A DNA stretch of 64,000 bases from the IMG/VR virus record IMGVR_UViG_3300035135_002933; one strand, 5' to 3'. Made by a program: the position numbers and the translations under genes. Shown piece by piece: positions 8,975 to 64,000 of the stretch. This DNA comes from a virus. The notes under the pieces were generated by a model. The model saw nothing but the letters and a program-made list of their open reading frames with translations, searched no databases and was not told where the DNA came from. Position 1 is the stretch's first letter, and each line of letters starts with the position of its first letter.

Positions 8975-9336
8975 TGTTTGACCTAATTGGGATGCCGTAC
9001 AAACTTGGTGCGCACCCAAGTAGCGGCAAAACCGACTGCATCCAGCTGGTTTATGAGGTGCGTAGACGCTTGGGGCTGAGTTGCCCGCCGATGCAGCAAG
9101 CCTGGTACAACGGATCGCGGGTCAAGATATTGCGTGCATTGCTGACTTGGGGCGCCGAGACCTATGCTCCTCTGTACGATGGTGATGTGGCGCTTGCGTC
9201 GCAAAGCACTTGGGCTTTTGGTGTCGTATGGCAAGCCGGCATTCTGCGTATCAGCAAGCTATCTCAGGCGGTCGCATGGTCCCCTATCGACAGCCATTCG
9301 ACCCACTGCCGTTACTTCCGTGGGAAAAGCAGCTGA
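8971..9336 (+). CDS. NlpC/P60-like tail tip assembly protein (gpK-like)
   Basis: LIGMPYKLGA...TDCIQLVYEVRRRLG matches the NlpC/P60 DC motif. Confidence 0.65.
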   Translation: MMFDLIGMPYKLGAHPSSGKTDCIQLVYEVRRRLGLSCPPMQQAWYNGSRVKILRALLTWGAETYAPLYDGDVALASQSTWAFGVVWQAGILRISKLSQAVAWSPIDSHSTHCRYFRGKSS

Positions 9337-12300: not shown

Positions 12301-13082
12301 CAATCGAGCCGGCATTGCCGATCAATGGCAACAACGTCATCGACGGCACCATTGCCGTACCGATCAAAGCCATCTTCACCGACGGCAACATCATTGAAGA
12401 CAGTTTCAGCTTGGATTACCTCGGGCTAGAAGAGCGCAAAATGTTCCAAGCTGTCATCCTTTACCGCAAGGAACGCCAGAATGAGTTTCCAGAAGATCGC
12501 ACGATCACTGTGCGCTACAAAGAGGACATTAGCAAACCATTTGAAGAGTTCGAGATGTCGCATGTGACATCAACAAACCATGCGATTAAAATTGCCAAGT
12601 ATTTCCTGTCATTGCGCAAGCATGTGACGCATTCCATCACGTTCAAGACACTGCCAGATGGTAATGCACTGCAACCTGGCGACTGGATTAAGGTCGCAAC
12701 AGCAAGCAATCCGTACAACCCTGTTGCCAATGGTGTCGTCAAAGACGATGGCACTGTTATCAGCACCGAACCTTTGACCGCTGGGTCGTACTCGGTGTTC
12801 TACTGGGATCGCAGCAGCAGCACTATTGATGAAGGCACACTCGATATTGCGGCTGATGGCACAGCATCAAACCTGCGCGGTACCATCTTCTCCGTTAAGA
12901 GCAGCACCGAATCGAACTACATGAATGTGTACCAAATCGAAGCGCTGGACATTGATCAAGATGGCATTGTTGGCATCAAAGCCACTGAGTTCCCGGTGGA
13001 CAGCAACGGCCGCAGTATCATTGCTCAAGACGTAACACCGCGTTCTGGTCAGTTTGACGTGATCGCCGACGTGCTCGACTGA
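9276..13082 (+). CDS. central tail fibre / tail tip hub protein (gpI+gpJ-like)
   Basis: About 1270 aa; FGFSSQQQLASYGTPVPIVF and C-terminal ETSH/AIKIAKYFL...ITFKT...LQPGDWIKV features of J-like proteins; start uncertain. Confidence 0.75.
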   Translation: MVPYRQPFDPLPLLPWEKQLIAAIDCTEEEYRLFVRELYRRAAVRPAQYAHIPDVQNFPDPFVTSLVVSLVVGALSTAASYLLAPKPAQPSAPDEAKLRRLRSIRGQQNFAPTFGFSSQQQLASYGTPVPIVFTKQQLVTDDLGETYYSGGILISPLLVWSRIKSFGSHQVIELQMVAGQAPMERADTAGIFLGNNTLDAIHDESYQFYYTGGFDENTSSRLTGRNKRYGNLAQPPVTGAYEDAFFCPTRLGGGRPGFSHAYTPSSNTRFGVYGATPNGTPYRLNWEVISVTKLEGKERDDAREEAAKQYRIVAQADMESVLGGEDLNKPYNSGMPGVGRNYARHVGVIEHNGYRVPSPDTEQGTGTRIRTVNKGDIIRIVVGYGRQDRKPTWSQDKVTRGANINTEDVRSTTDNENVTYDSRFKLGAYFLIGRCLFRVISRSDFIYEPGITGHVDVALECIETWSRIENKIGIVGLNKIERTDYLAGPDISEAFFPICQVELANIVNNKDCDVTELGIKSNVWLRFDGICNFNAVPNPETLIRKNQKKIQLSTPYRNTYGTRTSYFLLYARPANENPDGSARWEFLKMFCVKGSSPVNQYNFIRVFHPKRERYEFRIRPITSGEQVYTSDPNAEVWQLDATAPYSETSIDTEYGTFLVGAKFRTIINNSAWSLREMIDRPSRFGQATTVTISGKGEEPRSVSYQGLVEYGTNNYANNFKESNVWSIKAGLDPFYNNLGEGATHKFQITYTDAGQGISGNREVVLEIKLKSYKQSRAQATDGRNLWWRVVRVEVISGSGNWADGNVFRKQNFFDGFGNNWQAIFRVDGIKESTISIPTTIGRKFEEYPGIAEVSHYGDLIKRSCDDGPEHEIVYVNESLEESIIPQYENLAMAGLKLKSGFNINNVDQLHLYIKNGVEIELLTDGGTGPSNLFTDLAYYLLTNSDIGVGGIISSELIDREQLAATGRYLRANGLWFDDVISEGINVRSYLASKAPSMLCNLSSKNGIFSIEPALPINGNNVIDGTIAVPIKAIFTDGNIIEDSFSLDYLGLEERKMFQAVILYRKERQNEFPEDRTITVRYKEDISKPFEEFEMSHVTSTNHAIKIAKYFLSLRKHVTHSITFKTLPDGNALQPGDWIKVATASNPYNPVANGVVKDDGTVISTEPLTAGSYSVFYWDRSSSTIDEGTLDIAADGTASNLRGTIFSVKSSTESNYMNVYQIEALDIDQDGIVGIKATEFPVDSNGRSIIAQDVTPRSGQFDVIADVLD

Positions 13083-26958: not shown

Positions 26959-29895
26959 CTACTTTGCGTCGGCCCAGGTAGCACCATATGACGCTTCCGC
27001 GATAATAGGCACCTTGTGGCACACAACGCCTCCCGCAGCCTCCATCAATGCCGTAAGTAGAGCAGCCCACTGCTCAACCACAGCTTCTCTCACCTCGAGA
27101 ACGATCTCGTCGTGCACCATGGCGATCAAGAACGCCTCATCCACCGGTGCACCCACGATCTTTTGCCAGATCATAGCCAACGCGATTTTGGCAATATCTC
27201 CTGCCGTGCCTTGTACCTGCGTGTTGATCCGTGTCGTGAATTTGTCATTGAATCCGATTAGCCGCCTGCGGCGCCCATATCGCGTAAACACACAACGTGT
27301 GGTCTTGTTACCTTCCTGTGTCTGCCACGCATACAGCTCAGGGTACGCTTCACGGAACCCTTTAACGAGCTCGGTAGCTTCATCAAGCTCCATATCTACA
27401 CCGTACTGAGCAACAGCTTGCTTGCGTAATGTAGCTGCTCCTGCCCCATATAGGAGCCCAAAGTTACACAATTTGGCCGAAGTTCGCTCACTTTTTGTAA
27501 TCGTAGCCGCATCCTTACCAGTAATCAAAGCCGCAGTCTCCGTGTGCAGATCTCGTCCCGCCTTATACGCCTCCAACATGCGCGACTCTCCCGAGAGCTC
27601 AGCTGCCACCCGCAGTTCCACCTGCGAGAAGTCCGCCACAACGAGCGCATAACCCCCCCGAGCCCGGAATAGCTGCCTGAACTCCGCTTCACGAGGCACT
27701 TGCTGAAGGTTCGGACCAGAGCAGTTGTGCACACAAAGCTCTTCGGCGATAAAGTTATGCGTATCCTCGATCTCTAAATCGTACACTTCGGCTTCGCCGG
27801 CAGGCATAACCAGTAAAACGCGGTGATTAGTACGTAATATACCGTAAGCTAGCATTAAATCATTTAGCTTACGTGTACCTATACCTAAAAGCTTAGCCGT
27901 ATGCTCTATAGTACGTCCTTCACTATAAGCTAGTTCGATCGCACGTTTGTTTAAGTAAATACCATTAGCACTGTAGCGACGCGTGAGTGCCTTAAGATCT
28001 AAGCCAGCTAGTTTACACTTGCGTTTGTACACGTCGAAATCCATTGGTATGTACGTTAAGCGTCCCCCAGCTTCAGCTAACCAGCGGAGAAGTGTAAACT
28101 TAGATACGTGCTTCCACTGTGCGTTGTCGGCTCCTATGAACTTACCCGTACGAGCAGCGGCACTCTTACGGATCGACTCTTCGGTAAATAACCAGTTCGG
28201 ACGCCTAGATGCCGCGTGATGCCGCAAATGCTCAATCTGTGGCATAACCTCAAGATTAGTTAAGCAGTTATTAGTTTTGTCGTGATCTTTGTGATGAATA
28301 TGCCACTCGTACCCCGGCTTACCGAAATATGATTCTTTAATAATAATAAGCTGCTCTGTACTAGAGCCATAGTTACGCCAGTAAAGCCGAGGACGCTCAC
28401 TTTTGGTCGAACGGCGTAGATGCCAGATCTGCTCATTCGGCAACAATGACTGAGCTTCTACCCACCCACGGTCTGTTCTAATGCGGTGATCGGGTGTGCA
28501 GATCAAAGAACCGTACTGAGGGTCTTGATGGCCTTTAGCTTCCCAATCAACGCAGACTACGGGGCGTTTACCGTTACACCACTTATTGACCACGCGTTTA
28601 ATAACAGGTGCACCATTGGCATCTAGAGAATAAACGTAGTCACCCACCTTCACGTTTTCTATAGCTATAGCACCATTAGGCGCGAGAATTCGCTGCCCTT
28701 TGGCTATACAGCTGAGCCGCCCAGTCTCTGTGCCCATCTGCCTGTAGTTCGCATGAATCCTCCCATCCGGCCCTAACGAATCCAGCAGCTTCTCGATATG
28801 TGACACCCGCGTGACCGCATTCTTCCACTCCAAATACAGCGCCACGAGCTCGTACTCGTTCTTCAGAAACGCCAGCAAGTTCTGGTCCAGACTCGGTAAC
28901 CCCTTCTCGTTCGGGGACAACAGAATCCCTGCCTGCTCAAACCGCTCCGCCATCTGCTGCGGCGAGCGCGGATTGAACCCCTTGTATCGCTTGGTGCCTA
29001 GCCGAATCGAGCCCGAGTCCTTCTCCCGTGTGTTCACCGTCCCATCTGGGTCTCGCGGCAACCACACCCCTCGATCATCCGGGTGCTCCTGTTTGATCGC
29101 CTGATCCAGCTCCTCAAGGAAGCGCGTCTTAAGCGTCTCAGCATGGTCGTGCAATGAGACCTGCAGCTTCGCCGCAGCTACTGCGTCAAACCCAAACCCG
29201 TTCCACTGCATCCGCGCGATGGGCCGCAACGCGTTCATCTCGAGATCGAACACGTCCAACAACGTCACCGAGCGCGTGAGCGCCTCCCCACGCAGCGCCT
29301 CCATAAGCAGCGGCGCCAGCCTCGGAAGGCACACCGCGTCCCGCGCGGCGTACTGCACCATCTCCGGCGTGATCTCACCTGCCCAGTTCGCCTTCTGCAG
29401 CTCCTTAGGCATCGGCACCTTGAGCACCCGGTTCACGATGCTCCCGAGGTCGTTCTTGGCCCCTGTGCCATTGTTGATCACCTTGGCGGCGATCATCGTG
29501 TCGAAGATCGACCCCCCGAGCTCGAGGCCCTCCCCTTTGAGGAAGTTGAGGTCGAATGCTGCGTTCTGCAGCACCTTCTTACGCCGGCCCTCCAGCAGAG
29601 CGCGCAGCTGCATGAGCCCAGGAGCCTCCCACGGCACCTGCCGCACACCCTCGGTGCGCCACCCGTCCAGGTCCACAATCAAGGCGTAGTCGCGAACCGC
29701 GACTTGAATGAGACGCACCTGATTCACCAATGGATCGAGGCCGGTGGTCTCTGTATCCACCCCCAGGGGGCACTCGCTCTCAGCGAGCTCGGCCACGCGC
29801 CGCTTCAGTAACGAGCTCGACTGCGGACCTTGTATGAAGTCGAAATCAACATCTTCTAAAGCTTTTTGGTGGGCGAGTGTGGCATCCGAAGGCAT
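26959..29895 (-). CDS. polA: family A DNA polymerase (3'-5' exo + pol) interrupted by an intein
   Basis: GVDTETTG exo I, QNAAFDLNFL exo II, YAARD exo III; ADFSQVELR motif A, AKLCNFGLLYG motif B, VHDEIV motif C. Confidence 0.95.
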   Translation of the reverse strand: MPSDATLAHQKALEDVDFDFIQGPQSSSLLKRRVAELAESECPLGVDTETTGLDPLVNQVRLIQVAVRDYALIVDLDGWRTEGVRQVPWEAPGLMQLRALLEGRRKKVLQNAAFDLNFLKGEGLELGGSIFDTMIAAKVINNGTGAKNDLGSIVNRVLKVPMPKELQKANWAGEITPEMVQYAARDAVCLPRLAPLLMEALRGEALTRSVTLLDVFDLEMNALRPIARMQWNGFGFDAVAAAKLQVSLHDHAETLKTRFLEELDQAIKQEHPDDRGVWLPRDPDGTVNTREKDSGSIRLGTKRYKGFNPRSPQQMAERFEQAGILLSPNEKGLPSLDQNLLAFLKNEYELVALYLEWKNAVTRVSHIEKLLDSLGPDGRIHANYRQMGTETGRLSCIAKGQRILAPNGAIAIENVKVGDYVYSLDANGAPVIKRVVNKWCNGKRPVVCVDWEAKGHQDPQYGSLICTPDHRIRTDRGWVEAQSLLPNEQIWHLRRSTKSERPRLYWRNYGSSTEQLIIIKESYFGKPGYEWHIHHKDHDKTNNCLTNLEVMPQIEHLRHHAASRRPNWLFTEESIRKSAAARTGKFIGADNAQWKHVSKFTLLRWLAEAGGRLTYIPMDFDVYKRKCKLAGLDLKALTRRYSANGIYLNKRAIELAYSEGRTIEHTAKLLGIGTRKLNDLMLAYGILRTNHRVLLVMPAGEAEVYDLEIEDTHNFIAEELCVHNCSGPNLQQVPREAEFRQLFRARGGYALVVADFSQVELRVAAELSGESRMLEAYKAGRDLHTETAALITGKDAATITKSERTSAKLCNFGLLYGAGAATLRKQAVAQYGVDMELDEATELVKGFREAYPELYAWQTQEGNKTTRCVFTRYGRRRRLIGFNDKFTTRINTQVQGTAGDIAKIALAMIWQKIVGAPVDEAFLIAMVHDEIVLEVREAVVEQWAALLTALMEAAGGVVCHKVPIIAEASYGATWADAK
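27724..28710 (-). mobile_element. 329 aa intein with an HNH endonuclease
   Basis: TGRLS|CIAKGQRI...VYDLEIEDTHNFIAEELCVHN|CSGPNLQQ; internal HHKDHDKTNNCLTNL; AT-richer than the exteins. Confidence 0.93.
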
Positions 29896-52218: not shown

Positions 52219-53699
52219 TGACCGCGTCCATCTCCCAGCTCCAACGCCGCGTCGACAAGCTCCGCGTCGAGCTCGCCAAGCGCAAGGCACGCTCCGCCAA
52301 CTACAACCCGGCGGTGGCCCCCACGCAGCTCCCCGGCGTAGATGACTGGCCGTCGTTCGCACGACGCACCTGGATCCGCACGTCCGGCACGGTCGCCCCG
52401 TTCGTGCCGTACCCCTACCAAGAAGCGCTCGTGCGATCGATCAACGAGCACCCGAACACGATCATCAACAAGTCGCGCCAGATGGGCGCCTCGGAGACGG
52501 TCTGCTCCTACCTCCTATGCCGTGCGCTGACCGAGCGCGGCTTCGCAGCCGTGATCTTCTCCAAGACCCAGCAGGACGCCTCTGAGCTCGGCCGCCGCGT
52601 GCGCGCCATGGCCAACAGCATCGAGGGCGAGTCGATCCGCTACCTGACGGACAGCAACACACAGATCGCCATCGAGGGCCGCGGCACGCTCTACTTCCTG
52701 CCGGCCTCACCGCGTGCAGCGCGAGGCATCCCCAGCTGCTCAGTCCTGTTCATGGACGAGGGTGCGTTCCTCGACGGAGCTGCCGAGATCTACCGCGGCG
52801 CCATGCCCACGCTCTCCATGGTGGGCGAAGACGCCAAGGTGATCGTCACCTCCACCCCAGACACCGAGCTCGACTGGTTCGGCCAGCTCTGGCACCAGGG
52901 CACCCCGGCCGACTGGTACGACTACGTGCGCCGCCGCGACATCGATGGCCTCAACGCCATGCTCGCGCAGATCGGAGACTCCTGGAACCGCGTCGCGATC
53001 CATTACTCGCAGCACCCGGTCTACAGCCGCGACCCCGACTGGGCGCAGCGCACCCGCGAATCCCGCCGCATGACGCAGGCCGCCTGGGATTCCGAGTACG
53101 AACTCGCCTTCGGTGCCACCGACACCCAGATCTACCCCTCCGCCCTGGTGCAGCGCGCGGCGCGCGGCCACCTGCGCGAGTGCGGCACCATCCACCGCAC
53201 CTACGTCATCGGCATCGACCCCAACGCCGGCGGCAACGACTACTTCGTGGCCCTGGTCCTCGACATCACGCAGAAGCCCTACGAGGTCGTCGGCCTCTAC
53301 CGCGAAAACGGCAAGAGCACCGACTACAGCCTGCGGCACGTACGCACGCTCATTGAGGACTACGCCCCTGACCGCGTGATCGTGGAGAAGCAGGCCATGG
53401 GCTCCGTCATCGCCGAAGCCCTACAGAACGTGCTGCCGAACTACGCCATCGAGCTGTTCAGCACCAGCCGCCCGAGCAAGACGGTGGCCACCGACCGAAT
53501 TTTGTATCTGCTCGAGCGCGACGAGCTGATCTTCCCGCCCGGCCCGATCGCTGACGAGCTCCGCGCCTTCCAGCAGAAGGACAGCGGCCAGCGCGAAGCC
53601 GCAAGCGGCGCTCACGACGACACTGTTATGGCGTTGTCCTTCGCTTGCTCACTGATTCCAGAGACGCCGGCGCTCGCCAGCTTCTTCGACAACATTTAG
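52218..53699 (+). CDS. terL: terminase large subunit
   Basis: KSRQMGASE Walker A, LFMDEGAF Walker B, IGIDPNAGG and HDDTVMA nuclease motifs. Confidence 0.93.
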   Translation: MTASISQLQRRVDKLRVELAKRKARSANYNPAVAPTQLPGVDDWPSFARRTWIRTSGTVAPFVPYPYQEALVRSINEHPNTIINKSRQMGASETVCSYLLCRALTERGFAAVIFSKTQQDASELGRRVRAMANSIEGESIRYLTDSNTQIAIEGRGTLYFLPASPRAARGIPSCSVLFMDEGAFLDGAAEIYRGAMPTLSMVGEDAKVIVTSTPDTELDWFGQLWHQGTPADWYDYVRRRDIDGLNAMLAQIGDSWNRVAIHYSQHPVYSRDPDWAQRTRESRRMTQAAWDSEYELAFGATDTQIYPSALVQRAARGHLRECGTIHRTYVIGIDPNAGGNDYFVALVLDITQKPYEVVGLYRENGKSTDYSLRHVRTLIEDYAPDRVIVEKQAMGSVIAEALQNVLPNYAIELFSTSRPSKTVATDRILYLLERDELIFPPGPIADELRAFQQKDSGQREAASGAHDDTVMALSFACSLIPETPALASFFDNI

Positions 53700-54019
53700 G
53701 CAGCAGCGCTCCAGGCCTGTTCCAACCAGCCGAGAATCGCAGCCTCCCGCCGCGGGCACCACCAGCTCTGTTGCCGGAACCAGCTCAGCCAGTCCAGCGT
53801 GCTGCCCTTCGCGCGGTTACATGCTGCGCAACAGCAGATCAGATTTGTTCGGTCCGTCCGTCCTCCCCGAGAACGGGGCCTGACGTGGTCCAGCGTGTCC
53901 CCTGGCCGGCCGCAATAAGCGCAAAGGCACCCCCAGCTATTGAGGATGCCTTGGCGAAATTGCTGTTTGGCTTGCCGTTTGGTCAGGAGACGTGTGCCAT
54001 CGATCCTGTGATCGACCAT
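53696..54019 (-). CDS. HNH endonuclease (McrA-like)
   Basis: CAYCG..TLDHVRPRSRGG..NLICCCAACNRAKG. Confidence 0.88.
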   Translation of the reverse strand: MVDHRIDGTRLLTKRQAKQQFRQGILNSWGCLCAYCGRPGDTLDHVRPRSRGGRTDRTNLICCCAACNRAKGSTLDWLSWFRQQSWWCPRREAAILGWLEQAWSAAA

Positions 54020-54070
54020 GCCCCAAAGGCGGCTACCCCAGGGTAAGGAGCGCACCCGCGCGGAAACGCA

Positions 54071-54150
54071 CAAACACGTTACCAGATACAAAAGTACGTT
54101 ACCAGATACTCAAACACGTTACCAGATACGCAAACACGTTACCAGATGCA
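54071..54150. repeat. four tandem 20-bp direct repeats
   Basis: CAAACACGTTACCAGATAC-like unit x4, invariant core ACGTTACCAGAT. Confidence 0.95.
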
Positions 54151-54232
54151 GTTGCACGAGTTGCTAGCTACCTATGATCTCGCGCCAGTACAGCTAGTCT
54201 GCTCACAGCGCACCCCTCGCGTCGGTAGCAAC

Positions 54233-56059
54233 ATGGCAGCAACTCATACTGATAACACCCGGAACGACGGCGCCTTAGTAAATATGCTCACGGGTCTAGG
54301 CGTACCCGCAAAAGACAAAACAACATCAACACAGGTCCGCTCTAACACACTGCTCACCGAGGCCGAACTAGAAGCCCTGTACACCAGCGGCATACCACGA
54401 CGGTACGTCGACGCTATTGCTGACACGATCCTGTCCCACCAAGCCACCATCAAGCTCGGTGGCGACGAAGCGGCTGACAACGCCGACCTGATTGCCGAGT
54501 TCGACCAGTTCCTCCAGGCCACCCAGTTCCACCTGGCCTTCTCCGAAGTCATCAAACTGCAGCGCCTCTATGGCGGTGCCGGCCTGGTGCTGCTCATTGA
54601 CGATGGTGGCGAGCCACAGGACCCCGTCGATCTCAACCGCATCCGCGGCGTTCGGGGCTACATCCCCCTCTCCCGCCACGAGCTGATCCCCGAGGACGTC
54701 TCCATCACCGACTACTCGCGCCCCACGCACTACCGGATCACCACCAGTCAGCGCATCACCCCCGAGCAGGGCAGCAGCTACGTCAACATCCTGGTCCACC
54801 ACACGCGTGTCGCCCGCTTCGACGGCCTCTACCTGCCCTGGAACCTGCGCTCCCGCAACACCGGTTGGGGTCAGTCCGTCCTCCAGCTGATCTGGGAGTC
54901 CTTCAAGCGTTACGAGACCGCCATGTCCGGCCTGGAGTCGATGACCTCCGACGCGGACCTGTTCGTGCACAAGATGCCCGGCCTGTTCAACCGCATCTCT
55001 TCCGGCAACGAGGCCGATCTGCGCAAACGCCTGGAGGCCAACAGCCTCAGCCGCAGCGTCTACGGCGGAATGATCGTGGACAAGGAAGAGGAGGTGAGCT
55101 TCCTCAACCGAGCACTGAGCAACATTGCCACGGCATCCGATCCTTTCGTCAAGGATCTGCAGGCTGCCACCGGCTGGCCCGCCTCCATCCTCATGGGCGA
55201 CAGCCCCGGCGGCCTCGGCAAAGAAGGCCGCTTCGAAGAACGCGTCTGGGCCTCACTGGTCCAGCAGTGGCAGGAGGTCTACTGCCGCACTGCGGTGACC
55301 GAGATCTTCACGTACGTCCTCGCCTCGCGCGAAGGACCAACCCGTGGCCGTGTTCCCGAGTCCTGGTCGGTGCACTTCCCCTCGGTGTTCACCGCCACCG
55401 ACAAGGAGCGCGCCGAACTGCACCAGCTCAAGGCGGCCTCCGACGCGCAGTACATCCAGCTGGGTGTGCTCAACCCCCTCGAAGTGCGCGACTCCCGCTT
55501 CGGCAGCACCGAGTACTCGATCGACACCAAGCTCAACGAGGCGGTGACCCAGCAGCTGATCGCCACCACCGACGCGCAGTTCCAGTCGCAGATGGCAGGG
55601 TACGACGCGCAGATGCAAGCGATGCAGCAGCCGCCGGCTGCGCCGGCGCAGGAAGGTGCAGCACCCGAGGGCGATAACGCCGCAGCACCGGCCGCCGAAG
55701 GCGAATCCGCCGACTTCCAGTTCGACTCGGCCGAAGGCCTGCGCATCCGCGTCACCCACCGCCGCGGCGACAGCGTCGCCGGACCCCTCGTCGGTCCCGA
55801 CGGCCAGCGCATCGACAGCAGCGCCGCCGCGCCGATCCTGATCATCGGCCCGCATCGCACCCGAGCACGCAAGCTCTACCGAGCGCGATTCGCTCTCGAC
55901 AGCGCCATCACCGACGGCCCCTACACCACCGGCTTCAACTCACTCCGCGCCGCCAAAACTGCTGTGCAGCAGTTCTTCCCCGGTCAGAATGTGGCAGGGC
56001 TTTCACCAGTGCCCGACGCCGAGGCCGACGCCTTTCGCGCCTACAACGAGGGGTACTGA
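54233..56059 (+). CDS. portal protein (DUF1073 type) with C-terminal extension
   Basis: QRLYGGAGLVL, RVARFDG, GWGQSVLQ, AAATGWP..LMGDSPGGL; after terL, before MuF. Confidence 0.9.
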   Translation: MAATHTDNTRNDGALVNMLTGLGVPAKDKTTSTQVRSNTLLTEAELEALYTSGIPRRYVDAIADTILSHQATIKLGGDEAADNADLIAEFDQFLQATQFHLAFSEVIKLQRLYGGAGLVLLIDDGGEPQDPVDLNRIRGVRGYIPLSRHELIPEDVSITDYSRPTHYRITTSQRITPEQGSSYVNILVHHTRVARFDGLYLPWNLRSRNTGWGQSVLQLIWESFKRYETAMSGLESMTSDADLFVHKMPGLFNRISSGNEADLRKRLEANSLSRSVYGGMIVDKEEEVSFLNRALSNIATASDPFVKDLQAATGWPASILMGDSPGGLGKEGRFEERVWASLVQQWQEVYCRTAVTEIFTYVLASREGPTRGRVPESWSVHFPSVFTATDKERAELHQLKAASDAQYIQLGVLNPLEVRDSRFGSTEYSIDTKLNEAVTQQLIATTDAQFQSQMAGYDAQMQAMQQPPAAPAQEGAAPEGDNAAAPAAEGESADFQFDSAEGLRIRVTHRRGDSVAGPLVGPDGQRIDSSAAAPILIIGPHRTRARKLYRARFALDSAITDGPYTTGFNSLRAAKTAVQQFFPGQNVAGLSPVPDAEADAFRAYNEGY

Positions 56060-56062
56060 TCA

Positions 56063-59000
56063 GTGACGCAGCCCAACATCACTCCTGAAGGCTTCCGCAC
56101 CGCGGCCTACCTGGCGACACGGCAGCGCATCGACGCCGCACGCAGCCGCAGTGGCAAGACTTTGAAGCGGGTTACGTGCAACCCGCCCAACGTGCAATGC
56201 GGTGGCCGGTGCATCCCGCCGAACTGGGATTGCCGCCTGAAGGGCCAAGGCGCCGACCCGCAGTTGCGCGCGGTGCAGACCGACCCCGTGGGGGGCCTGG
56301 CCAACATCGAGCGTGGCGTCAAGCGCATCGCCAAGGGTGTCACCAAGGGCAGCTTCTCCGAGATCGAGGGAGGCAAGCGCGCCATCGTCCGCGGCGTGGT
56401 GAAGGCCACCCCAGGTGACATCCAGCGCAAGAAAGAGCTCGCCGCGAAGCTCGAACGCCAAGGTGCACGTATTGCAGTAGGTCTTGCTGTGGTCGGTTCA
56501 GGCCTGGGAATCCATAGCTTGCTGATGAAGCGCAATACGTTGGGCTATAGAGATGGAGTAGGTGCAAATATCAATAATGCAGTGCGTCTAGGTGTTAATA
56601 AAGTTCTCGATGCTACCCCTATAATTAAAACAGAGCGAGAGCGTAAACGCGCAAGAGCTCAAGCCGGGGTAGAAGCTGCACTTATGCGGCAAACGAATCC
56701 AGTGTCTAAGCAGTTGACGAATCAGCTAGCTAGGACAGGGGTTTCTGCGGCAGATGAAGATAGCCGGTCCAATTTAATCAATAACTTAAACAAAGTCTAT
56801 AACAACCCTGAGCTTTCAGGCCCTCAGTCTGACTTTAATGAGTGGAATAGAGCCCATCAACGTGCTTTTTGGTCTACTACACGTAAAGAGATAGGCGTAG
56901 GACTCGCTACAGGTGAACGCGGCAGTATATTTGCGCGCCCTGCTACTGACGAATTTCTAACACGTCAATTTAATTTGCAAGGTGATGACACCCTAACACC
57001 TGCAGCAATTAAAGATGCAATTTCACGTAATCTAGAAACGTACAAAGAAGATTTAGTTAATCTAGCGCAGCAACAAGGCTTTCAACTACAGACTGTAGCT
57101 GGTGGTAAGCGTGTTATAGCTAAAAACGATCGGCGTCAGTTCATCAAAGGAGTAGTGCAGTCAAGTCTCCCAAAAGGGCAAGCCAACGATGCTGTGCGTT
57201 CTGCTTTCACTAAACACTTAGAGCAGACTCTATCCAAAAACCCAGCGACACTCGCCGGAGAAATATATCGTGACACGTATAGAGGGTTTGACGATTTTTA
57301 CAAAACAAAAGCTACTACTATCCGCGCGGCTACTGCTGAACCATTTCTCAGTCAGCCACTCCGCCAAGCTGGAGCAACAGAGACCTTACTAGACGCTAAT
57401 CAATCCAGGGCTGCTTTTATTTCTGGCAAGCGAACCGCAGGTCCCCTCCACGCGGAACTGGTGCTAAGGCAGCATCATGCCGAGGTAGTACGCCGAGCCC
57501 CTGGCGCCCGTTTCGAGGTCTCGGACAGGGTTGCAGTGCAGGCGATCGAGGAGCTGACAGGCAACACGGTCAGTCCACGAGAGGCCTTCCGTCTCCTGAA
57601 CAACGAGCACGGTTTCTCCGGCATCCGGCGTGTAGGCGGTGCTGTGGAACCCCGCCGCCCCGGCCGCAGAGCTCAAGTGGAGCTTTCTGATCTGGCACGG
57701 CAGCTACGTGAGGCTGCCCGAGCCCGTGGCGAGGAGATGAGCATGGAGGCTTCTATCAGAGCGGCGAAGGCCGAGCTCGCTCGCCGCCAGCGCGGTGACG
57801 CCCTACCCCCCGGTCTGCTGCGCACCGCCACCTACCTGGCCGTGCGTGCCGACCTCCGCGGTGAGGGCAAGCCCTGCGGGGCGAGCCACATCCCGAAGGC
57901 GCATGAGTGCCGCATCGGTGCCGGAGGTAAGGCTGCTCCCGAGAGCGAATCCACCAAGCCCAGCGGCCGCGGCAAGAAGCTCGCCCTCGCCGCCGGTGGA
58001 GCGGCCCTTCTCGCCGGCGGCGCCCTGGCTTACAAGAACCGGAAGCCCATCGCCGCGGCTGCCGGCGCACTCAACACTGAGCGCAAAGCTCAAACCGAGC
58101 GCGTTGTCGCTGAGCTCAGCAAGAACACGATCAAGACGCTGTCGCGGGATGACGTCGACGCCGGTATCGCAAAGCTACCTAAGAAGTTCCAGGAGCCTGT
58201 GAGGCAACTCGTGGGTGATGCCAAGGTCAGTGCGGCCCACCTCGCGCTAAAGACTAAAGGCGGGCAGATTACATCAGTCGATGTAGATAACAACTTCAGT
58301 AACTGGAAGATGCCCGATGGCACACTACTTAGCACGGGCTCAGTCAAGGATACACTTGTTATCTACAACACCAAACCACAAGCCAGCATCGGCGGCGCAC
58401 AAACATTCGCGACTCAGTTCCGTGTAGACGGCGAGTTCGACGCTAAGTCTGTTTCCGCTTCGCGCAATGCCACAAGCGTGGTTTCTACTGTCAAGAAAAT
58501 GTTCCAATCCCAAATGGAACAGATCCCTGACAACTCAATTATCACAGCTATCCCCTACGCGAACGATAAGAAAGGGCGTCAGCGTCGCGCTATCTACCAG
58601 CGCTATGGCTTCCGTCAAGCCTCGGCCTCTGACGAACGGCTCTTCGCCATGAAGACCAAAGGCAAGTTCACCAAGATGAAGGATTCTCATCTTGAGCAGA
58701 TCGCCGACTTTATCCGCAACGACACCAAGCTCGATAAGGAGGACAGCCGCCTGGGAAAGCCCTGTGGAGCCTCGCATATCCCGAAAGCCCATAAGTGCAG
58801 AAAAGGAGCAGGAGCTATTGAAAGGGAGGAGCGTAAACTATATGAAAAAAGCACAACTAAAGCTGAAAGAGCATATGTAGAAAAACATGGCATGCCTAAA
58901 GACACACTGAGTGTCGTAGAAGCCCAGCTAGAATTAGAGAAAGCATCTAAGCAGAAAGCGCAACAGCCAACCAAAAGCAACAAAGCAGCCAAAATTGCTA

Positions 59001-59926
59001 TCGGCGTAGGTGTAACTGCCGTTGGTGCACTAGCTGTCACCGCAGCTTTAGACGCCCACCGCTTTCTAAAGCCCCGTGATCTCCCTGCGCCAGCTTCGTT
59101 CAAATCGGTAGTACAAACACAACGCAAACAAGCTGGTACTAAGCTCACGTCAGGCGAAGCACTAGGACGTCACTACGACTCAGAAGTAAGCGCCGGTCGC
59201 CTTAAAGCAGGTGACGTTGTCTACACCGTCCAAAACATCCGTGGTGATGCTTCCAGCGGCCGCCACTTCGCTGTCTACCTAGGCAAAGCAGGCGATAACC
59301 ATCAATTCCTGGAGATGACCCGAGTAGCGGGTGACCTTAACCGTGGACAAGCGATGCTCACCGAGTTCGGTGCCACCGCTGGGCGCCCCGCCTACGCCGC
59401 GGTGTACGCAAAAGCACCCAGGATGAAGCAAGACAAACAAATATCAGTAAACGAAATCAAAAACAGAGCTTATTCTCTCATGGGTAGTAGTATGCAATAT
59501 CACCAGCTCGATAGCAATTGCGAGACGTTTGCTCGCATGATCGCTGCAGGTAATCCTCGTTCTAAACAAATAGACAAGCTCTCACTACTAACCAAGGGTA
59601 TCTATCGTGGCCTAGACAAGTACCTGGACGAAGATCGTCCAGTTAATCTGCCTACAGTTAGAGAGCAAGCTCGCATACTCGACTACAAGCAGCGCATTGC
59701 TGAAGGCGACCGCGCAGCACGTCAAGAGCTCAAAGCTTTTACAACTCTCATCTCAAAGCGTAAGCAACGAAACGACGCTGTAGAAGATTTATTTACAGAT
59801 CTTCCTTCTCCTAGCGAACTACTACGCGACTCTAAGTCTGAGATAGAAGACGCTACTAGAATAAAACTATACCTGATGTTACTCTTAACCCAAAGCCGCA
59901 CGTTGATGAAACATGCAACTCCTTGA
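56063..59926 (+). CDS. modular head-associated polyprotein A (3 knuckle-TM-domain cassettes; GNAT-like and LRAT-like domains)
   Basis: CGGRCIPPNWDCR; KPCGASHIPKAH(E/K)CR x2; RHFAVYLG..NCETF. Confidence 0.7.
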   Translation: MTQPNITPEGFRTAAYLATRQRIDAARSRSGKTLKRVTCNPPNVQCGGRCIPPNWDCRLKGQGADPQLRAVQTDPVGGLANIERGVKRIAKGVTKGSFSEIEGGKRAIVRGVVKATPGDIQRKKELAAKLERQGARIAVGLAVVGSGLGIHSLLMKRNTLGYRDGVGANINNAVRLGVNKVLDATPIIKTERERKRARAQAGVEAALMRQTNPVSKQLTNQLARTGVSAADEDSRSNLINNLNKVYNNPELSGPQSDFNEWNRAHQRAFWSTTRKEIGVGLATGERGSIFARPATDEFLTRQFNLQGDDTLTPAAIKDAISRNLETYKEDLVNLAQQQGFQLQTVAGGKRVIAKNDRRQFIKGVVQSSLPKGQANDAVRSAFTKHLEQTLSKNPATLAGEIYRDTYRGFDDFYKTKATTIRAATAEPFLSQPLRQAGATETLLDANQSRAAFISGKRTAGPLHAELVLRQHHAEVVRRAPGARFEVSDRVAVQAIEELTGNTVSPREAFRLLNNEHGFSGIRRVGGAVEPRRPGRRAQVELSDLARQLREAARARGEEMSMEASIRAAKAELARRQRGDALPPGLLRTATYLAVRADLRGEGKPCGASHIPKAHECRIGAGGKAAPESESTKPSGRGKKLALAAGGAALLAGGALAYKNRKPIAAAAGALNTERKAQTERVVAELSKNTIKTLSRDDVDAGIAKLPKKFQEPVRQLVGDAKVSAAHLALKTKGGQITSVDVDNNFSNWKMPDGTLLSTGSVKDTLVIYNTKPQASIGGAQTFATQFRVDGEFDAKSVSASRNATSVVSTVKKMFQSQMEQIPDNSIITAIPYANDKKGRQRRAIYQRYGFRQASASDERLFAMKTKGKFTKMKDSHLEQIADFIRNDTKLDKEDSRLGKPCGASHIPKAHKCRKGAGAIEREERKLYEKSTTKAERAYVEKHGMPKDTLSVVEAQLELEKASKQKAQQPTKSNKAAKIAIGVGVTAVGALAVTAALDAHRFLKPRDLPAPASFKSVVQTQRKQAGTKLTSGEALGRHYDSEVSAGRLKAGDVVYTVQNIRGDASSGRHFAVYLGKAGDNHQFLEMTRVAGDLNRGQAMLTEFGATAGRPAYAAVYAKAPRMKQDKQISVNEIKNRAYSLMGSSMQYHQLDSNCETFARMIAAGNPRSKQIDKLSLLTKGIYRGLDKYLDEDRPVNLPTVREQARILDYKQRIAEGDRAARQELKAFTTLISKRKQRNDAVEDLFTDLPSPSELLRDSKSEIEDATRIKLYLMLLLTQSRTLMKHATP

Positions 59927-60782
59927 GCGCTACAACAACGCCCTCCGGCGCACCGAGGACGTCACCATCACCCAGCTCAACCGCATCCTCGATCGCAGCT
60001 TCAACCGCCTGATCCGCCGCACCCGGGTGCACATGCGCGCCGGCGCCCCGGCCGTGGACCGCAACATGGCCCTCCTCCAGGAGTTCCGCCAGCTGATCCC
60101 GGCGTTCAACCCCCAGCGCACCGACGCCTACGACCGCGTGCTGCGCTCCCTCTTCCGCAGCGCCCAGGGCAACGGCCTCACCGTCGCAGACGAGATGCTC
60201 TATGAGCTTGACCCGACACGTCAGCGCATCGACGTCTCTATTCCGATCGAAGCCACGGTCGCCGCGGCCGCCCAGGCCAAGGGCTACCTGCGGCGCCACG
60301 GCGAGACCTTCGCCACCACCGCCACCGAGCTCGTTGCTCAGGGCGTGGCCGAAGGCCGCCCCACTGACGCCATCACCAACGACCTGCGCCTCCGCCTCGG
60401 CGTCGTGAAGTCCCGCGCGGATGTCATCGCTAGGACGGAGAGCCTTCGTGCTTACAACACCGCGAGCAATCAGTATTACGCAGCTAACGGTATTGACTTA
60501 GTTTTAAGATATGCAACGGCAGACGATAGGACCTGCCCTATCTGCAACGCTCGCGCAGGGCGTATTTACAAACGAAGTGAAGTTCAAGCAACAATTCACC
60601 CGCGTTGCCGATGTTATCTCGCCCCTTGGGATTCCGACTTAGCTGCTATGTCCCCCGAGTACGCTGCACTACCTCAACGCCACCGCGAAGAAGTCTCCCG
60701 AGTACGAACAGTCGGCCCCGCCGACCTCAACAAGGCCGGTGTCTTCGAGCAAATCGCACCACAGCCCATCGATTCTCCGTAG
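59913..60782 (+). CDS. head morphogenesis protein (SPP1 gp7 / MuF family)
   Basis: RADVIARTE..DDRTCPIC..HPRCRC. Confidence 0.92.
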   Translation: MQLLERYNNALRRTEDVTITQLNRILDRSFNRLIRRTRVHMRAGAPAVDRNMALLQEFRQLIPAFNPQRTDAYDRVLRSLFRSAQGNGLTVADEMLYELDPTRQRIDVSIPIEATVAAAAQAKGYLRRHGETFATTATELVAQGVAEGRPTDAITNDLRLRLGVVKSRADVIARTESLRAYNTASNQYYAANGIDLVLRYATADDRTCPICNARAGRIYKRSEVQATIHPRCRCYLAPWDSDLAAMSPEYAALPQRHREEVSRVRTVGPADLNKAGVFEQIAPQPIDSP

Positions 60783-60827
60783 CACAACACAGCTACTCTG
60801 TGTGAAGCACAGTCCAGGGCTCATACC

Positions 60828-61730
60828 ATGCCTGCCACCGCCCGCCGCCCCAAATCCGAGGCCTACGAGAAGGGCATCCGCGAAGGCAAGGCCATGGCTG
60901 CCCGCTCGCGCAGTGCTGCATCCCCCGAGAGCGAAGAAGAGGAGGAGCTCGAGATGGATATGGATCCCGGGCACTCCCGCAAGCGCAGCGCCAAAGGTGC
61001 CAAGCACACCAAGCCGGCCGCCGACGGCTACGGCATGAAGAAGCCCATGGACGCCGAGTGCGGCTGCGGCGGCAAGAAGGGCGGCAAGTGCGACGGCAAC
61101 TGCGGCTCCATGCGCAAGCGCAGTGACTCCCTCACCCCGCAGGAGTACCTGACCGCCTGCGACCTCGGCATCCAGGGCCGCAGCACCAGCTATATCCGAG
61201 CGCGGCTCGACACCGCGGAAGCCCGCGCCGACCTGAAGTGTGGAAAGGGTTCGATCTCCGAGGGCGAGAAGTGCACCAAGGGTGCTGCGCAGAGGGTGCA
61301 GCCGAAGAAACCAGGGCGTGTACGCACGATCGCGTCAGCCGGTGCAGTTCTCGGCGGTTTGGCAGTGAATGCTGGTGCCACCGGCTACGGCCTTGCTAAG
61401 ACCTTCAGTGGTGACTTGGCCGGCGCTGGTCGCGCTTTTCAGGTTGCCGGCGCAGGTCAAGCGCTGTCTGGTGTAGGCGCACGTGGACTGGGTTTGAAAA
61501 AGGAGAGCCGGAAGCTCCTGGCCAATGCAGCACTCACTGCAGGCGCCGGAACCTACCTCCGTGAGCAACAGACTGGTGAGCTTGCCCGCGGACTGCGCAA
61601 GGGCCGCATGGCTATGCGAGCTAATCGGTTGAACCGACGCCGAGCATCATTAGAAAGGAGTTTCCGCAAACCGTCTGCTAAGCGTCCTCCTCGCCGCGAC
61701 TCCATCTGGGCGGAGGGCTTCGATTCATGA
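60828..61730 (+). CDS. head-associated protein B with Cys-rich segment and knuckle-TM cassette
   Basis: CGCGGKKGGKCDGNCG; RADLKCGKGSISEGEKC; ends RRDSIWAEGFDS. Confidence 0.65.
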   Translation: MPATARRPKSEAYEKGIREGKAMAARSRSAASPESEEEEELEMDMDPGHSRKRSAKGAKHTKPAADGYGMKKPMDAECGCGGKKGGKCDGNCGSMRKRSDSLTPQEYLTACDLGIQGRSTSYIRARLDTAEARADLKCGKGSISEGEKCTKGAAQRVQPKKPGRVRTIASAGAVLGGLAVNAGATGYGLAKTFSGDLAGAGRAFQVAGAGQALSGVGARGLGLKKESRKLLANAALTAGAGTYLREQQTGELARGLRKGRMAMRANRLNRRRASLERSFRKPSAKRPPRRDSIWAEGFDS

Positions 61731-64000
61731 CGCTAACTCCAGCAACCCTACGCCTTGACCTCAAATGTGGCAAAGGTGCGATTTCTGAGGGCGAAAAGTG
61801 CCACGTAGGACCTGCAACCAAAGTGCAAGATAAACCCGCTGTATCGAAAACAGAACACAAAGGACTAACAGGTAAGCAAAAAGCACAAGTTGCAGGGCTA
61901 GCTGCGTATGCGGCGCTTGGCGCCGCCACGCTATATCAGATGAAGAATATACGTAAAGCTTACAGTGAAAAATTCGATCCCGCGCAACGGTATAAACCAT
62001 TCGAGAGAACACTGGGAGATCCCAGCGACGTGCTTAATAACATCACTCGCTCTGACAAACAGGCTGGCCCTTCTCTATTTGGTGACGTAAGCTTCGGTAA
62101 ATACAAAGATAAGGATGTAGTAGTTAAAAGCTTTGGGAAGAAAGGATCTGCAGGGAGTATGGCGATACGAATGATGGAAATGCAGAAAGTCATATCAGAA
62201 GATACAGCAGACGCGCTTATTAGAGGCCAGAAAGCGCTTCAAGTAAACGAAGTTCAAGGTGCTTTCCTCGCTGGCCAACACGGAATCGGCCCCAAGGTTG
62301 TCGCAGCAGGTAACGGCACACGCCGCACCCTGCTTGGTCCCGAACGTGAAAACGTACTTGTCACCGAAGTCGCCAAGGGTCGCCCCCTTTCCAGTCAGGA
62401 CGCACTTATGCGCCAAGGCCCTAAACTACAGGCGCAACTGCAACAGAACCCAGGAGCTGCAATTAAAAAGATTGCTGCGCTCCGATGGCGCGGCTTTACC
62501 AAAGGCACCGAAATAAGTTCAGTCAACAAAGATCGCATCATCCGCAACATGGGGAAGATGCACACTATGGGCATGTCCCACAACGACTTGCATCCAGGGA
62601 ACATCTTCATCAGTAAGGAAGGCGCACAATTCATTGACTTTGGCACCTCTTCCCGCGGCGGAGCTTCCGTCGCCTCCGAGTTCGTCCGCCTGATGAACCC
62701 CCCTCGAACCGGTCTGCAGCAAGTCGGTGGCATGGGTTACAACCTGCGCAGCATGGATCCGCAGGGCTACAAGGCTGCCGAAGTTCGCATCCGCCAGGTG
62801 ATTGGGAAACGCGTAGGTAAACTCACTTCTGCTGATATTCAAAAAGCACTCTCCAAAAGCAAGAACAAAGACACGCTCGAATCCAATCTGCAGCGCATCG
62901 TCGATGATTTTTATCTGCAGTACGAAAGGCGCTCTCGTACTGACGCTCTGACCCCCGCTTCCATCCGCACCGACGCCACACGCAGCAAGCCTTGTGGCGC
63001 CAGCCACATCCCCGCCAGCCACACCTGTCACAAAAAAGGTTCTTCCACCGCCCGTAAAGCCATTGCTGTAGGTCTCGGTGTTACTGCTTTGGGTGCAGGA
63101 GCCTATGCCTTATCTCGGCAAAAGCGACGCAACCAAGCTGCTGTACAAAGGTCAGCGCGCCCCTCGGCATCCCGTGGTCAGCCTTCACCGCAGTCCACAA
63201 CGCCTGCCCCACAAACTACTTCGACTGCTCCCGTTAGGGCAAAGATAAATACGACGGAATTGACCAAAAAACAGAAAGCTCAAACAACCAGTACAAAGCA
63301 GGCTGCACCCCGAGAGCGGCCTCAATCAACTTTTGCTGCATTCAAAAAGCATGCGCTTCAAACAGAAGATGCTAAACCTATTTTGTGGGACAAAAAGAAT
63401 AATTTTTTGATTGCAGAAAATAGAGTAGGCACAAAATATGGATATACTCTCACGCCCGAAGGAATGTGGGTCAGCCTAAAAGTAGGCGGAGTAAGTGACG
63501 AAGTAGACTTTCAGATGCGAGCCTATAACAATAAAGTACCTACTCAGCTATCAGAAGAAAGCGCCAAAGCGACATTTAACAGACTTAGCAAAATGTTTCT
63601 TGAAGCCACCAAAGACAAGAAACCTGATACATTTCTTTGGACCCAAACAGCACGCGAACGTGATATGCAAACTTCGCGTAGTGCACAACTAGGAACAAAT
63701 ACACTTACCCTAGGTAAAGACCCTGAAAATGCACGGACAAAATTCTATAAAGCTTTGGGCTTTGAATTTGATCCAGAATCAGGTGAAGTAGGACGTACTC
63801 TCGGCGATGTTCGCACTTATTTATCCACAAGCAACCGTAACCGTCTTACCCGAGGCGACTCCACTCGGGTTGTGGTCCTAACTCCAACCTCTATCCGCAC
63901 CGACGCCGCCCGCAGCAAGCCTTGTGGTGCCAGCCACATCCCCGCCAACCACACCTGCCACAAACGTGGCGGCGGCCCGACCCCCAAGAGAGTCGCCCTT
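61727..64000 (+). CDS. modular polyprotein C (kinase-like and GNAT-like cassettes), runs off the window end
   Basis: ATGA overlap; 758 codons without a stop (absent from the ORF track); MTLTPATLRLDLKCGKGAISEGEKC; HNDLHPGN..DFG; RTDA-xx-SKPCGASHIP x2. Confidence 0.8.
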   Translation, partial: MTLTPATLRLDLKCGKGAISEGEKCHVGPATKVQDKPAVSKTEHKGLTGKQKAQVAGLAAYAALGAATLYQMKNIRKAYSEKFDPAQRYKPFERTLGDPSDVLNNITRSDKQAGPSLFGDVSFGKYKDKDVVVKSFGKKGSAGSMAIRMMEMQKVISEDTADALIRGQKALQVNEVQGAFLAGQHGIGPKVVAAGNGTRRTLLGPERENVLVTEVAKGRPLSSQDALMRQGPKLQAQLQQNPGAAIKKIAALRWRGFTKGTEISSVNKDRIIRNMGKMHTMGMSHNDLHPGNIFISKEGAQFIDFGTSSRGGASVASEFVRLMNPPRTGLQQVGGMGYNLRSMDPQGYKAAEVRIRQVIGKRVGKLTSADIQKALSKSKNKDTLESNLQRIVDDFYLQYERRSRTDALTPASIRTDATRSKPCGASHIPASHTCHKKGSSTARKAIAVGLGVTALGAGAYALSRQKRRNQAAVQRSARPSASRGQPSPQSTTPAPQTTSTAPVRAKINTTELTKKQKAQTTSTKQAAPRERPQSTFAAFKKHALQTEDAKPILWDKKNNFLIAENRVGTKYGYTLTPEGMWVSLKVGGVSDEVDFQMRAYNNKVPTQLSEESAKATFNRLSKMFLEATKDKKPDTFLWTQTARERDMQTSRSAQLGTNTLTLGKDPENARTKFYKALGFEFDPESGEVGRTLGDVRTYLSTSNRNRLTRGDSTRVVVLTPTSIRTDAARSKPCGASHIPANHTCHKRGGGPTPKRVAL
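62963..63964. repeat. 72-bp dispersed direct repeat (62963-63034 and 63893-63964)
   Basis: 67/72 identical; encodes IRTDA(T/A)RSKPCGASHIPA(S/N)HTCHK. Confidence 0.9.

Follow-up and report, generated by a model that had tools for sequence, protein, structure and literature searches.

We analyzed a 64,000-nucleotide (nt) stretch of viral DNA (IMG/VR record IMGVR_UViG_3300035135_002933; hereafter referred to as the window), which covers the greater part of a phage contig (~69 kb) recovered from a wetland metagenome. The same DNA, or DNA related to it, was also detected in aquaculture, pond, estuary and freshwater samples. This study focuses on three genes around that of the MuF head protein (g1287, g300 and g758+), all of which encode proteins built from a single recurrent sequence module. 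The gene order is a small terminase-like helix-turn-helix (HTH) protein, the large terminase (TerL), an antisense HNH protein, the portal, g1287, MuF, g300 and g758+. On the plus strand, the portal gene (54146..56059; PF06381, 1.3e-53), of which the product contains a conserved TRND-GALVN in its N-terminal region, is followed by g1287 (56063..59926), an open reading frame (ORF) called identically on the source contig that encodes 1287 amino acids (aa) with three modules in three cassettes. The MuF gene (59913..60782; plus strand) encodes an SPP1 gp7-type minor head protein (PF04233, 1.4e-13; phrog_115, 4.7e-23). The initial annotation of the window contrasted the locus with known MuF-associated toxins, which are fused to MuF; here, the protein is a stand-alone one of 289 aa with no toxin fused, in which PF04233 covers residues 139-236 and no further domain was found. 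The last two genes, also on the plus strand, are g300 (60828..61730), the conserved neighbour of MuF, and g758+, which starts at 61727 and runs past the window end at 64000, so that its third cassette is incomplete. On the source contig, g758+ continues to ~65002 and precedes a 100-aa gene, an HTH gene and the genes for a DUF2213/Pa193_gp24 protein, a cement protein and a PF09950 capsid protein; a DUF2213-type gene had been predicted nearby. The DUF2213 and capsid genes, which lie past 64000, were read in a relative, L004, instead. A metagenome scan for the remainder of g758+ plus the DUF2213 and capsid genes retrieved no relative.

The initial annotation had counted at least seven copies of the module in the three genes, and seven were found within a few nt of where it had placed them. 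The motif C-G-x3-I-x5-C occurs at 56198, 57875 and 58763 in g1287, at 61239 in g300, and at 61766, 62993 and 63923 in g758+, and was not detected outside these genes in any of the six frames of the window. In 20,000 residue shuffles of the three proteins, one motif appeared in 15 and two or more in none. Eight of the nine cysteines in g1287 (the ninth is the catalytic Cys of an LRAT domain; see below) and all six in g758 lie within the motifs. Every copy in the window has R-x-D upstream (among these sites, RGD at 57791, RAD at 57845, RND at 58715, RTD at 62936 and 62966, RGD at 63851 and RTD at 63896), and all the sites reported earlier were recovered. Likewise, a Gly/Ala-rich hydrophobic 18-mer follows the motif in all of the six copies that could be assessed (Kyte-Doolittle (KD) values of 1.25-2.10), as claimed, while the seventh copy leaves the window. 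We describe a cassette by five parts, namely a leader of 8-11 residues ending in R-x-D, a 12-residue Cys...Cys hairpin (the knuckle), a basic linker, a Gly/Ala helix and a payload. The same arrangement was found in 79 IMG/VR loci collected by a pattern scan, to which the locus counts below refer. R-x-D is located within 22 aa upstream of the first Cys in 238 of the 251 unique modules, as compared to 5% of background segments, and the residue after its Asp is mostly Leu, Ala or Phe. A hydrophobic helix is present within 100 aa downstream in 231 of 273 modules (85%), as compared to 5 of 569 background segments.

The knuckle takes several forms that differ in their possible metal ligands, namely C-x6-C-G-x2-C-I-x5-C with four Cys, C-G-A-S-H-I-P-x2-H-x-C (CGASHIPKAHEC) with Cys, His, His and Cys, and C-G-K-G-S-I-S-E-G-E-K-C (CGKGSISEGEKC) with two Cys only. 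The fourth position after the first Cys of the motif is His or Cys in ~41% of the modules. As the third and fourth ligands vary between His and Cys, the hairpin is probably a small, sometimes degenerate metal knuckle, or else a hairpin that depends on a partner. In the AlphaFold2 (AF2) model of the first cassette of g1287 (family 0), the four-Cys knuckle forms a short beta-hairpin (strands 44-46 and 49-51) with a predicted local distance difference test (pLDDT) score of 56-70, while the knuckle and helix of the second cassette (family 5) scored 30-40. The module profile had no match among PDB sequences at E<=10, and the comparison with Pfam returned only a stray LDL-receptor-A match in 2 of 15 members. 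Neither NCBIfam nor PHROGs yielded a model matching the module proteins.

The cassettes of g1287 and g758+ carry different payloads. Cassette 1 of g1287 (56063..57826, plus strand as are all the features below unless noted) has RID at 56126, a knuckle C-x6-CGGRCIPPNWDC at 56177-56233, a helix at 56471-56524 and a conserved all-alpha body. This family 0 occurs in 70 loci; its model (mean pLDDT of 81) had no fold match in PDB, BFVD or AFDB clusters at E<=0.001, and a protein atlas search yielded nothing usable. The junction between cassettes 1 and 2 (57791..57910) is composed of RGD-A at 57791, the spacer LPPGLLRTATYLAV, RAD at 57845 and the CGASHIPKAHEC knuckle at 57875-57910. Cassette 2 (57827-58714; family 5, 36 loci) has a helix at 57980..58033 (KD of 1.69; 67% Gly+Ala) and, judging from the AF2 model of residues 146-296 (58262..58714), its body is of the GNAT fold. 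The model was superposed on AAC(2')-Ia (5us1_J) with a VIA Z of 9.5 and a root-mean-square deviation of 3.0 A over 121 aligned residues, and almost all of the matches listed were GNAT acetyltransferases, including tRNA-acetylating toxins and AcrVA5; the Pfam sequence models for this body stayed below threshold. Cassette 3 (58715..59923; family 3) comprises RND at 58715, a knuckle at 58763-58798, a helix at 58994-59047 and an LRAT/NlpC-like domain with His at 59264 and Cys at 59516, which matched PF04970 (3.9e-6; 27.6 bits against a cutoff of 24.3) and bears HFAVY and NCETF motifs.

The product of g300 has an acidic, Cys-rich N-terminal part (a family present in 62 loci), RSD-S-LTP at 61119 followed by RLD and RAD, a knuckle at 61239-61274, a helix at 61326-61379 and a C-terminal tail RRDSIWAEGF at 61692-61721, the protein ending in PPRRDSIWAEGFDS. 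Cassette 1 of g758+ (61727..62944; family 2) begins with the leader MTLTPATLRLD, continues with a knuckle at 61766-61801 and a helix at 61889-61942, and carries a kinase-like body with VVVK at 62117, HNDLHPGN at 62579 and IDFG at 62633. Its Pfam and NCBIfam matches were sub-threshold, and its homologues have been named Ser/Thr kinase by JGI. Cassette 2 of g758+ (62936..63874) opens with an RTD-A-LTPASI-RTD junction and contains a knuckle at 62993-63028, a helix at 63059-63112 and a second GNAT-like body; the part at 62945-63874 matched the family 5 profile with an hhalign probability of 96.5%, which is partly owed to the shared module. The junction to cassette 3 (63851..64000) consists of RGD-S, LTPTSIRTD and a knuckle at 63923-63958. 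The kinase-like, LRAT/papain-like and two GNAT-like domains proposed at the outset were thus all recognized, the LRAT domain above its Pfam cutoff, the kinase by its motifs, and the GNAT bodies by the structural and profile matches above. The cassette bodies are 42-53% in G+C content, as compared to 63-70% for the core head genes. The mosaic is also seen at a finer scale, with 43-45% in the family 0 body (56550-57300) and 64-72% in the portal end (55500-56400) and the junction module (57600-58050).

A profile built from 15 modules was searched against 1.84 billion proteins clustered at 50% identity, and 458 clusters were retrieved at E<=1e-3 and 99 at E<=1e-10. The proteins in these clusters mostly contain two to six copies of the module, and nearly all of their Cys residues (0.5-0.9% overall) lie inside the modules. 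Three matches (P0002, P0009 and P0052) were rejected as false positives, being Cys-rich repeat proteins with 6-8% Cys. A scan of 185,579 genomes (genome_contigs) found the motif on a single 2.4-kb contig of a metagenome-assembled genome. About 70 loci share the order of TerL, portal, a family 0 protein with two to three modules, MuF and a g300-like protein, followed by one to five more module proteins. Altogether, the module proteins constitute, as far as sequences tell, a large and widespread family of modular proteins, unpublished and undescribed, in freshwater and brackish cyanophage-like phages that have a set of head genes in common (PF06381 portal, DUF2213 and PF09950 capsid proteins). 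The initial annotation did not recognize the locus as a described system, and this stands for the module, which has neither a Pfam nor a PDB match; the idea of packaged effectors is already known from polyvalent proteins and the T4 targeting sequence.

The payloads of the relatives include J-domains of the DnaJ type, present in five distinct cassette representatives, as well as an ADP-ribosyltransferase (ADPrib_exo_Tox), LPD1 and DUF5872. LPD1 was found in a module-bearing protein of one relative (L072; 1.5e-11) and in none of the window. Across the compared loci, the cassette bodies formed 39 families. Many of these are singletons, and six are common, each being present in 36-70 loci. The polymorphism anticipated for the payloads is therefore real but moderate among the sequences compared: the payloads do vary, but the first description overstated the point, as the six core families recur widely and a single window cassette (62945-63874), a singleton in the clustering, is unique among the loci.

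Comparing how the relatives divide their genes supports the view that the cassettes are autonomous units, fused in some phages and split in others. L004, which shares 78% identity with the window, partitions the same cassettes otherwise: two of its genes start with MALTPATLRLDLK-CG..., and another starts with MTITRNDVFIG...C-x6-CGNACIPKDHKC. In general, free-standing module genes begin with M-[TASV]-LTP-x-[ST]-[LIV]-R-x-D, typically 13 residues ahead of the first Cys, and this leader heads dozens of distinct free-standing proteins. In fused proteins, at least two R-x-D sites were found in 112 of 139 unique junctions, with the consensus R-x-D-[SA]-L-[TP]-P ... R-x-D-[LAF] ... knuckle. Given this consensus and the leader of the free genes, the doubled R-x-D is where one cassette ends and the leader of its successor follows. 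Residue 2 of the free-standing proteins aligns with the position just past the first R-x-D of a junction. Once trimmed of Met, these proteins would thus share the N-terminus that cleavage at R-x-D would make, as is predicted for a processing site. The earlier proposal of concatenated but separate effectors agrees with these gene borders, since relatives encode the same cassettes as genes starting exactly at the leader or fuse them otherwise. In other metagenome samples, contigs of relatives span the junctions and MuF, while none in runs X3 and X4 cover 63029-63686; joints skipping whole cassettes (61721->62945 and 58001->61756) were single low-depth contigs with short sides and give only a hint.

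The other end of the proteins is also conserved. A strict RRDS(I/V)(W/Y)AxGF tail ends 76 of the 133 complete post-MuF module proteins, with degenerate versions in further ones, but none of the 59 pre-MuF family 0 proteins. Of 109 occurrences of the tail motif, 105 are no more than 15 aa away from a C-terminus. Internal copies within module ORFs amounted to two distinct cases, in one of which the next R-x-D and knuckle follow within seven residues. Short ORFs of ~60-120 aa that lack the knuckle end in RDS(I/V)WA.GF as well (L018:9065-9358, L042:14280-14582, L073:11048-11413 and L083:6678-6905), so that the tail can occur alone. Separately, family 4 (L004:13078-14358 and its homologues; 42 copies) is a DUF5872 cassette with a Cys-rich C-terminus that ends in ...CSGKxSRRD-x-LTPGK or ...SRRS. 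This end equals the start of a leader cut by a stop codon. The cassette closes the last post-MuF module protein in L004 and several other listed loci.

Whether these proteins are carried in the virion can be judged from two cultured cyanophages. In vB_AphaS-CL131 (CL131), gp048 (1811 aa) contains five copies of R-x-D plus knuckle plus Gly/Ala helix (59.8 bits), and gp047, gp044 and gp045 contain one module each. Liquid chromatography-tandem mass spectrometry of CsCl-purified CL131 virions detected ORF048 with 175 peptide-spectrum matches (PSMs) and 54.6% coverage, ORF045 with 123, ORF047 with 24 and ORF044 with 9 PSMs, while the capsid protein ORF040 had 86, fewer than ORF048 or ORF045 (PMC6293099, Table S5); the module was not described by the authors of that work. 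In PaV-LD, R-x-D and a four-Cys knuckle were found in seven late proteins (ORF061R, 065R, 078R-081R and 085R), of which ORF081R and ORF085R are annotated as virion proteins. Both phages share with the window the combination of R-x-D with a C-x6-CGxxCIx5C or CGESHIPKKFKC knuckle and the set of DUF2213, PF09950 capsid and PF06381 portal proteins. Their likeness to the window is, on the other hand, limited to the module: tblastn of the window proteins came back blank in both genomes, and the RRDS..GF tail was not seen at the C-termini of the CL131 module proteins. When g1287, g758 and a small cargo protein were compared by tblastn to 50,697 GenBank phages, no match was obtained, and blastn was blank as well. 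This was a failure of sensitivity, as the module is present in CL131 and PaV-LD, where only motif and hidden Markov model scans found it. Among cultured phages, Synechococcus phage S-CBS4 has the closest portal (38% identity), and its first 22.6 kb are devoid of the module.

Packaging is thus supported by the homologous module on CL131 proteins found in purified virions, and we regard the module proteins of the window as very likely virion proteins, in line with the virion cargo first suggested (homologues gp044, gp045, gp047 and gp048 in CL131 particles). In a different scenario, the genes would merely lie among the head genes, and their products would be unpackaged membrane proteins, expressed late and serving, for example, in superinfection exclusion, lysis timing or host takeover. 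A hydrophobic helix would be unusual in capsid contents, and the virion support for the window phage is by homology, both of which suit that scenario. However, the genes keep the same place between portal, MuF and scaffold gene in ~70 loci, the CL131 proteins were recovered from CsCl-purified virions with high spectral counts, and PaV-LD members are annotated as virion proteins, so that we consider it very improbable. Because purified particles of a cultured cyanophage contain tag-bearing proteins in large amounts, the leader-knuckle-helix tag is probably a label for enzymes that the virus packages and brings into its host.

R-x-D is not restricted to the cargo. Four other head proteins of the clade have it 6-19 residues from the N-terminus: the capsid protein (MTTEIRND..., 19 of 19, at residues 6-8; the initial annotation had pointed to the capsid precursor for this site), the DUF2213-scaffold protein (METSVSRYDF, invariant), the portal (..FRNDGALVN, duplicated in several relatives) and the phrog_1645 virion protein (..YVR[GN]D). 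No R-x-D was found in the first 20 residues of the L004 terminase, MuF, cement, neck and tail proteins. The capsid and DUF2213 proteins of CL131 and PaV-LD contain R-x-D near the N-terminus as in the clade, with RMD as the form in the CL131 capsid protein, and the DUF2213 protein has an additional R-x-D-S just past an acidic linker, ~45 aa from the C-terminus. The portal FRND is doubled (FRND-x4/5-RNDGALVN) in L059:4429-6267, L069:4429-6267, L047:833-2695, L053:1740-3632, L079:225-2093 and L080:485-2368, which mirrors the doubled R-x-D of the cargo junctions. The DUF2213 family is labelled 'head maturation protease' in PHROGs, and His74 and Ser127 of its N-domain (alignment numbering) are candidate residues for such an activity. 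From the sequence patterns above, we put cleavage of the cargo at R-x-D at slightly short of an even chance.

The cassettes may instead act as whole polypeptides that are never cut, with R-x-D, hairpin and helix being a repeated structural or anchoring linker. This would place them with the phage-type polyvalent proteins, in which unrelated enzymatic domains share one polypeptide of the virion region proposed to be injected with DNA (Iyer, Burroughs, Anand, de Souza, Aravind 2017; PMC5512222). Like those, the window proteins combine at least two disparate domains per polypeptide (GNAT, LRAT/NlpC and helical family 0 in g1287; kinase-like and GNAT-like in g758+), are encoded among packaging and virion genes (TerL to capsid), and, with their relatives, draw on the published repertoire of kinase, GNAT, peptidase-like, ADP-ribosyltransferase and LPD1 domains. 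The coverage of 54.6% over the 1811 aa of CL131 gp048 is also compatible with an intact protein, and the protease role of DUF2213 is only a candidate one, its Pa193 member being regarded as putative scaffolding (see below). On the other hand, the residue that follows the first R-x-D is precisely where relatives have their gene borders, the free-standing proteins keep a leader of near-constant length, and R-x-D recurs near the N-termini of the four other head proteins. Furthermore, processing of polyvalent proteins has been proposed to involve zincin-like metallopeptidase domains, the hub of the described ones, and the window proteins had no Pfam match to such a domain; one cassette of a relative was ATLF-like at a sub-cutoff E of 0.005. 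The module family is set apart as well by the occurrence of its cassettes as genes of their own, with conserved tags at the termini, and PMC5512222 contains no mention of a cysteine motif, transmembrane segment or linker module. We regard the uncut alternative to the trimmed cargo as rather unlikely.

The helix and the genomic setting in CL131 suit yet another possibility, in which the proteins are structural ejection or conduit proteins whose Gly/Ala helices form an envelope channel for DNA, as with T7 gp14-16, P22 ejection and tape-measure proteins, the enzymes being accessory, for instance in wall or lipid remodelling by LRAT/NlpC. The hydrophobic helix follows 85% of the modules, there are small members without an enzyme, such as L004:11179-11679, in which only a Gly/Asn-rich region and the tail accompany the leader, knuckle and helix, the CL131 module proteins are very abundant in virions, and their genes adjoin the tape-measure gene, with gp047 annotated as similar to a tape-measure domain protein. 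In contrast, the targets of kinase, GNAT, J-domain and ADP-ribosyltransferase payloads are cytoplasmic, and the cassette content differs among close relatives, which is unusual for an essential conduit. A conduit as the main role appears unlikely to us, although it overlaps with delivery of the enzymes and is compatible with it. As a separate observation, the CL131 portal gp012 (L087:3801-7982) is 1393 aa long, ~800 aa above the usual length, and was detected with 107 PSMs in virions; its extension is without the knuckle motif.

As a whole, we favour with moderate confidence the explanation that these are virion-carried chains of modular effectors, which would be loaded by their termini, trimmed, ejected and planted in a membrane. 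The conserved termini would load the proteins into the particle in the manner of the T4 capsid-targeting sequence, and a head protease, for which DUF2213 is the candidate, would trim them and separate the fused cassettes after R-x-D. The proteins would then leave the particle with the DNA at infection, and at the point of entry the hydrophobic helix would plant the enzymes (a kinase, acetyltransferases and an LRAT/NlpC-type hydrolase, and elsewhere J-domains and an ADP-ribosyltransferase) in the cytoplasmic membrane of the host. The payload repertoire looks effector-like by its domain matches, and we infer, rather than observe, loading via the knuckle and insertion into the membrane. A broader version, in which the module is a general protease-gated delivery tag (a DUF2213-type protease cutting after Asp would mature capsid, portal and scaffold and free the enzymes, with the Cys hairpin for loading and the helix for insertion), is offered as a speculation that we ourselves find doubtful.

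Several points weigh against the explanation that we favour. The portal RNDGALVN may belong to the portal fold and not be a cut site. Pa193 gp24, a member of the DUF2213 family, was called a putative scaffolding protein in a cryo-electron microscopy study (PMC11456595), and in view of this conflict with the PHROGs label, the DUF2213 protease is only a candidate. The complex prediction of the DUF2213 protein with the C-terminal tail of the cargo scored 0.00, which carries no weight either way. The CGKGSISEGEKC subtype of the knuckle offers just two potential metal ligands, and, given the low pLDDT values, neither AF2 model gives the module a confident fold. In CL131, the module genes sit between the neck genes and the tape-measure gene without an adjacent MuF, and their proximity to the latter gene means that the compartment may be either the capsid interior or the tail lumen. 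Lastly, the close clade of the window phage has no cultured member, and its virion support comes via module homology to CL131.

The general strategy is already known from polyvalent proteins, the T4 targeting sequence, MuF toxins and giant-phage ejection proteins, and the module family resembles each of them in part. In T4, the capsid-targeting sequence ends in L/I-x-E, the cleavage site of the prohead protease gp21. The internal proteins of this phage, IPI-III and Alt, are diverse, fast-changing packaged proteins with only a short N-terminal targeting sequence in common (PMC3012670). The module family is analogous, not homologous, to them in having a short conserved N-terminal peptide on otherwise unrelated proteins, but T4 cargo shows no sequence relation to it and has no Cys hairpin, hydrophobic helix, C-terminal tail or fused chains; presence in particles, as for T4 cargo, is supported by the module homology to CL131. 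MuF polymorphic toxins of temperate phages (Jamet et al. 2017; PMC5576092) carry the effector as a C-terminal extension of MuF itself and have a cognate immunity gene behind the toxin. The window likewise links MuF with variable effector domains, but here the cargo has its own tag and MuF is free. The giant phages SPN3US and phiKZ trim head-internal proteins at a short site in common with capsid proteins and then eject them (PMC7411985, PMC10052503); their protease is of another family, the site is S/A/G-x-E, there is no leader-knuckle-helix module, and their cleavages were shown experimentally whereas ours are inferred. What our comparison adds is the module family, the fused and split cassettes, the leader and tail, and R-x-D in the four other head proteins, all read from sequence.

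With packaged effectors, a phage can influence its host ahead of the expression of its own genes. To our knowledge, few loading signals have been described, namely the T4 targeting sequence, MuF fusion and P1 Dar. The tag reported here is short, recognizable in sequence and widespread in uncultured freshwater and estuarine phages, and it is borne by kinases, acetyltransferases, J-domains, an ADP-ribosyltransferase and many unknown domains, so that candidate injected effectors of cyanophage-like viruses can be listed directly. If true, a protease-gated tag would be a third self-contained route for exchangeable effectors, beside MuF fusion and the T4 targeting sequence. The R-x-D pattern also suggests which sites the uncharacterised DUF2213 head protein might cleave. 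CL131, and possibly PaV-LD, provide a cultured system, and the existing mass-spectrometry data make both ideas testable.

Some further features of the window lie outside the module genes. No integrase was found among the ten window ORFs scanned (76-33003). The antisense ORF between the large terminase and portal genes (53696-54091, minus strand; 131 aa) has an HNH-like motif (DH..P..GG..N..CN..K), as read from the translation. Two very large ORFs on the plus strand (3609-8486 and 9210-13082; 1625 and 1290 aa) have no Pfam match and are probably the tape-measure and distal tail proteins; they are preceded by a 339-aa protein (1296-2315) with a weak Ig-like (Big_5) match just under the cutoff. 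A family A DNA polymerase (26959-29895, minus strand) is split by an intein (Hint_2, Intein_splicing) that bears an HNH_3 endonuclease.

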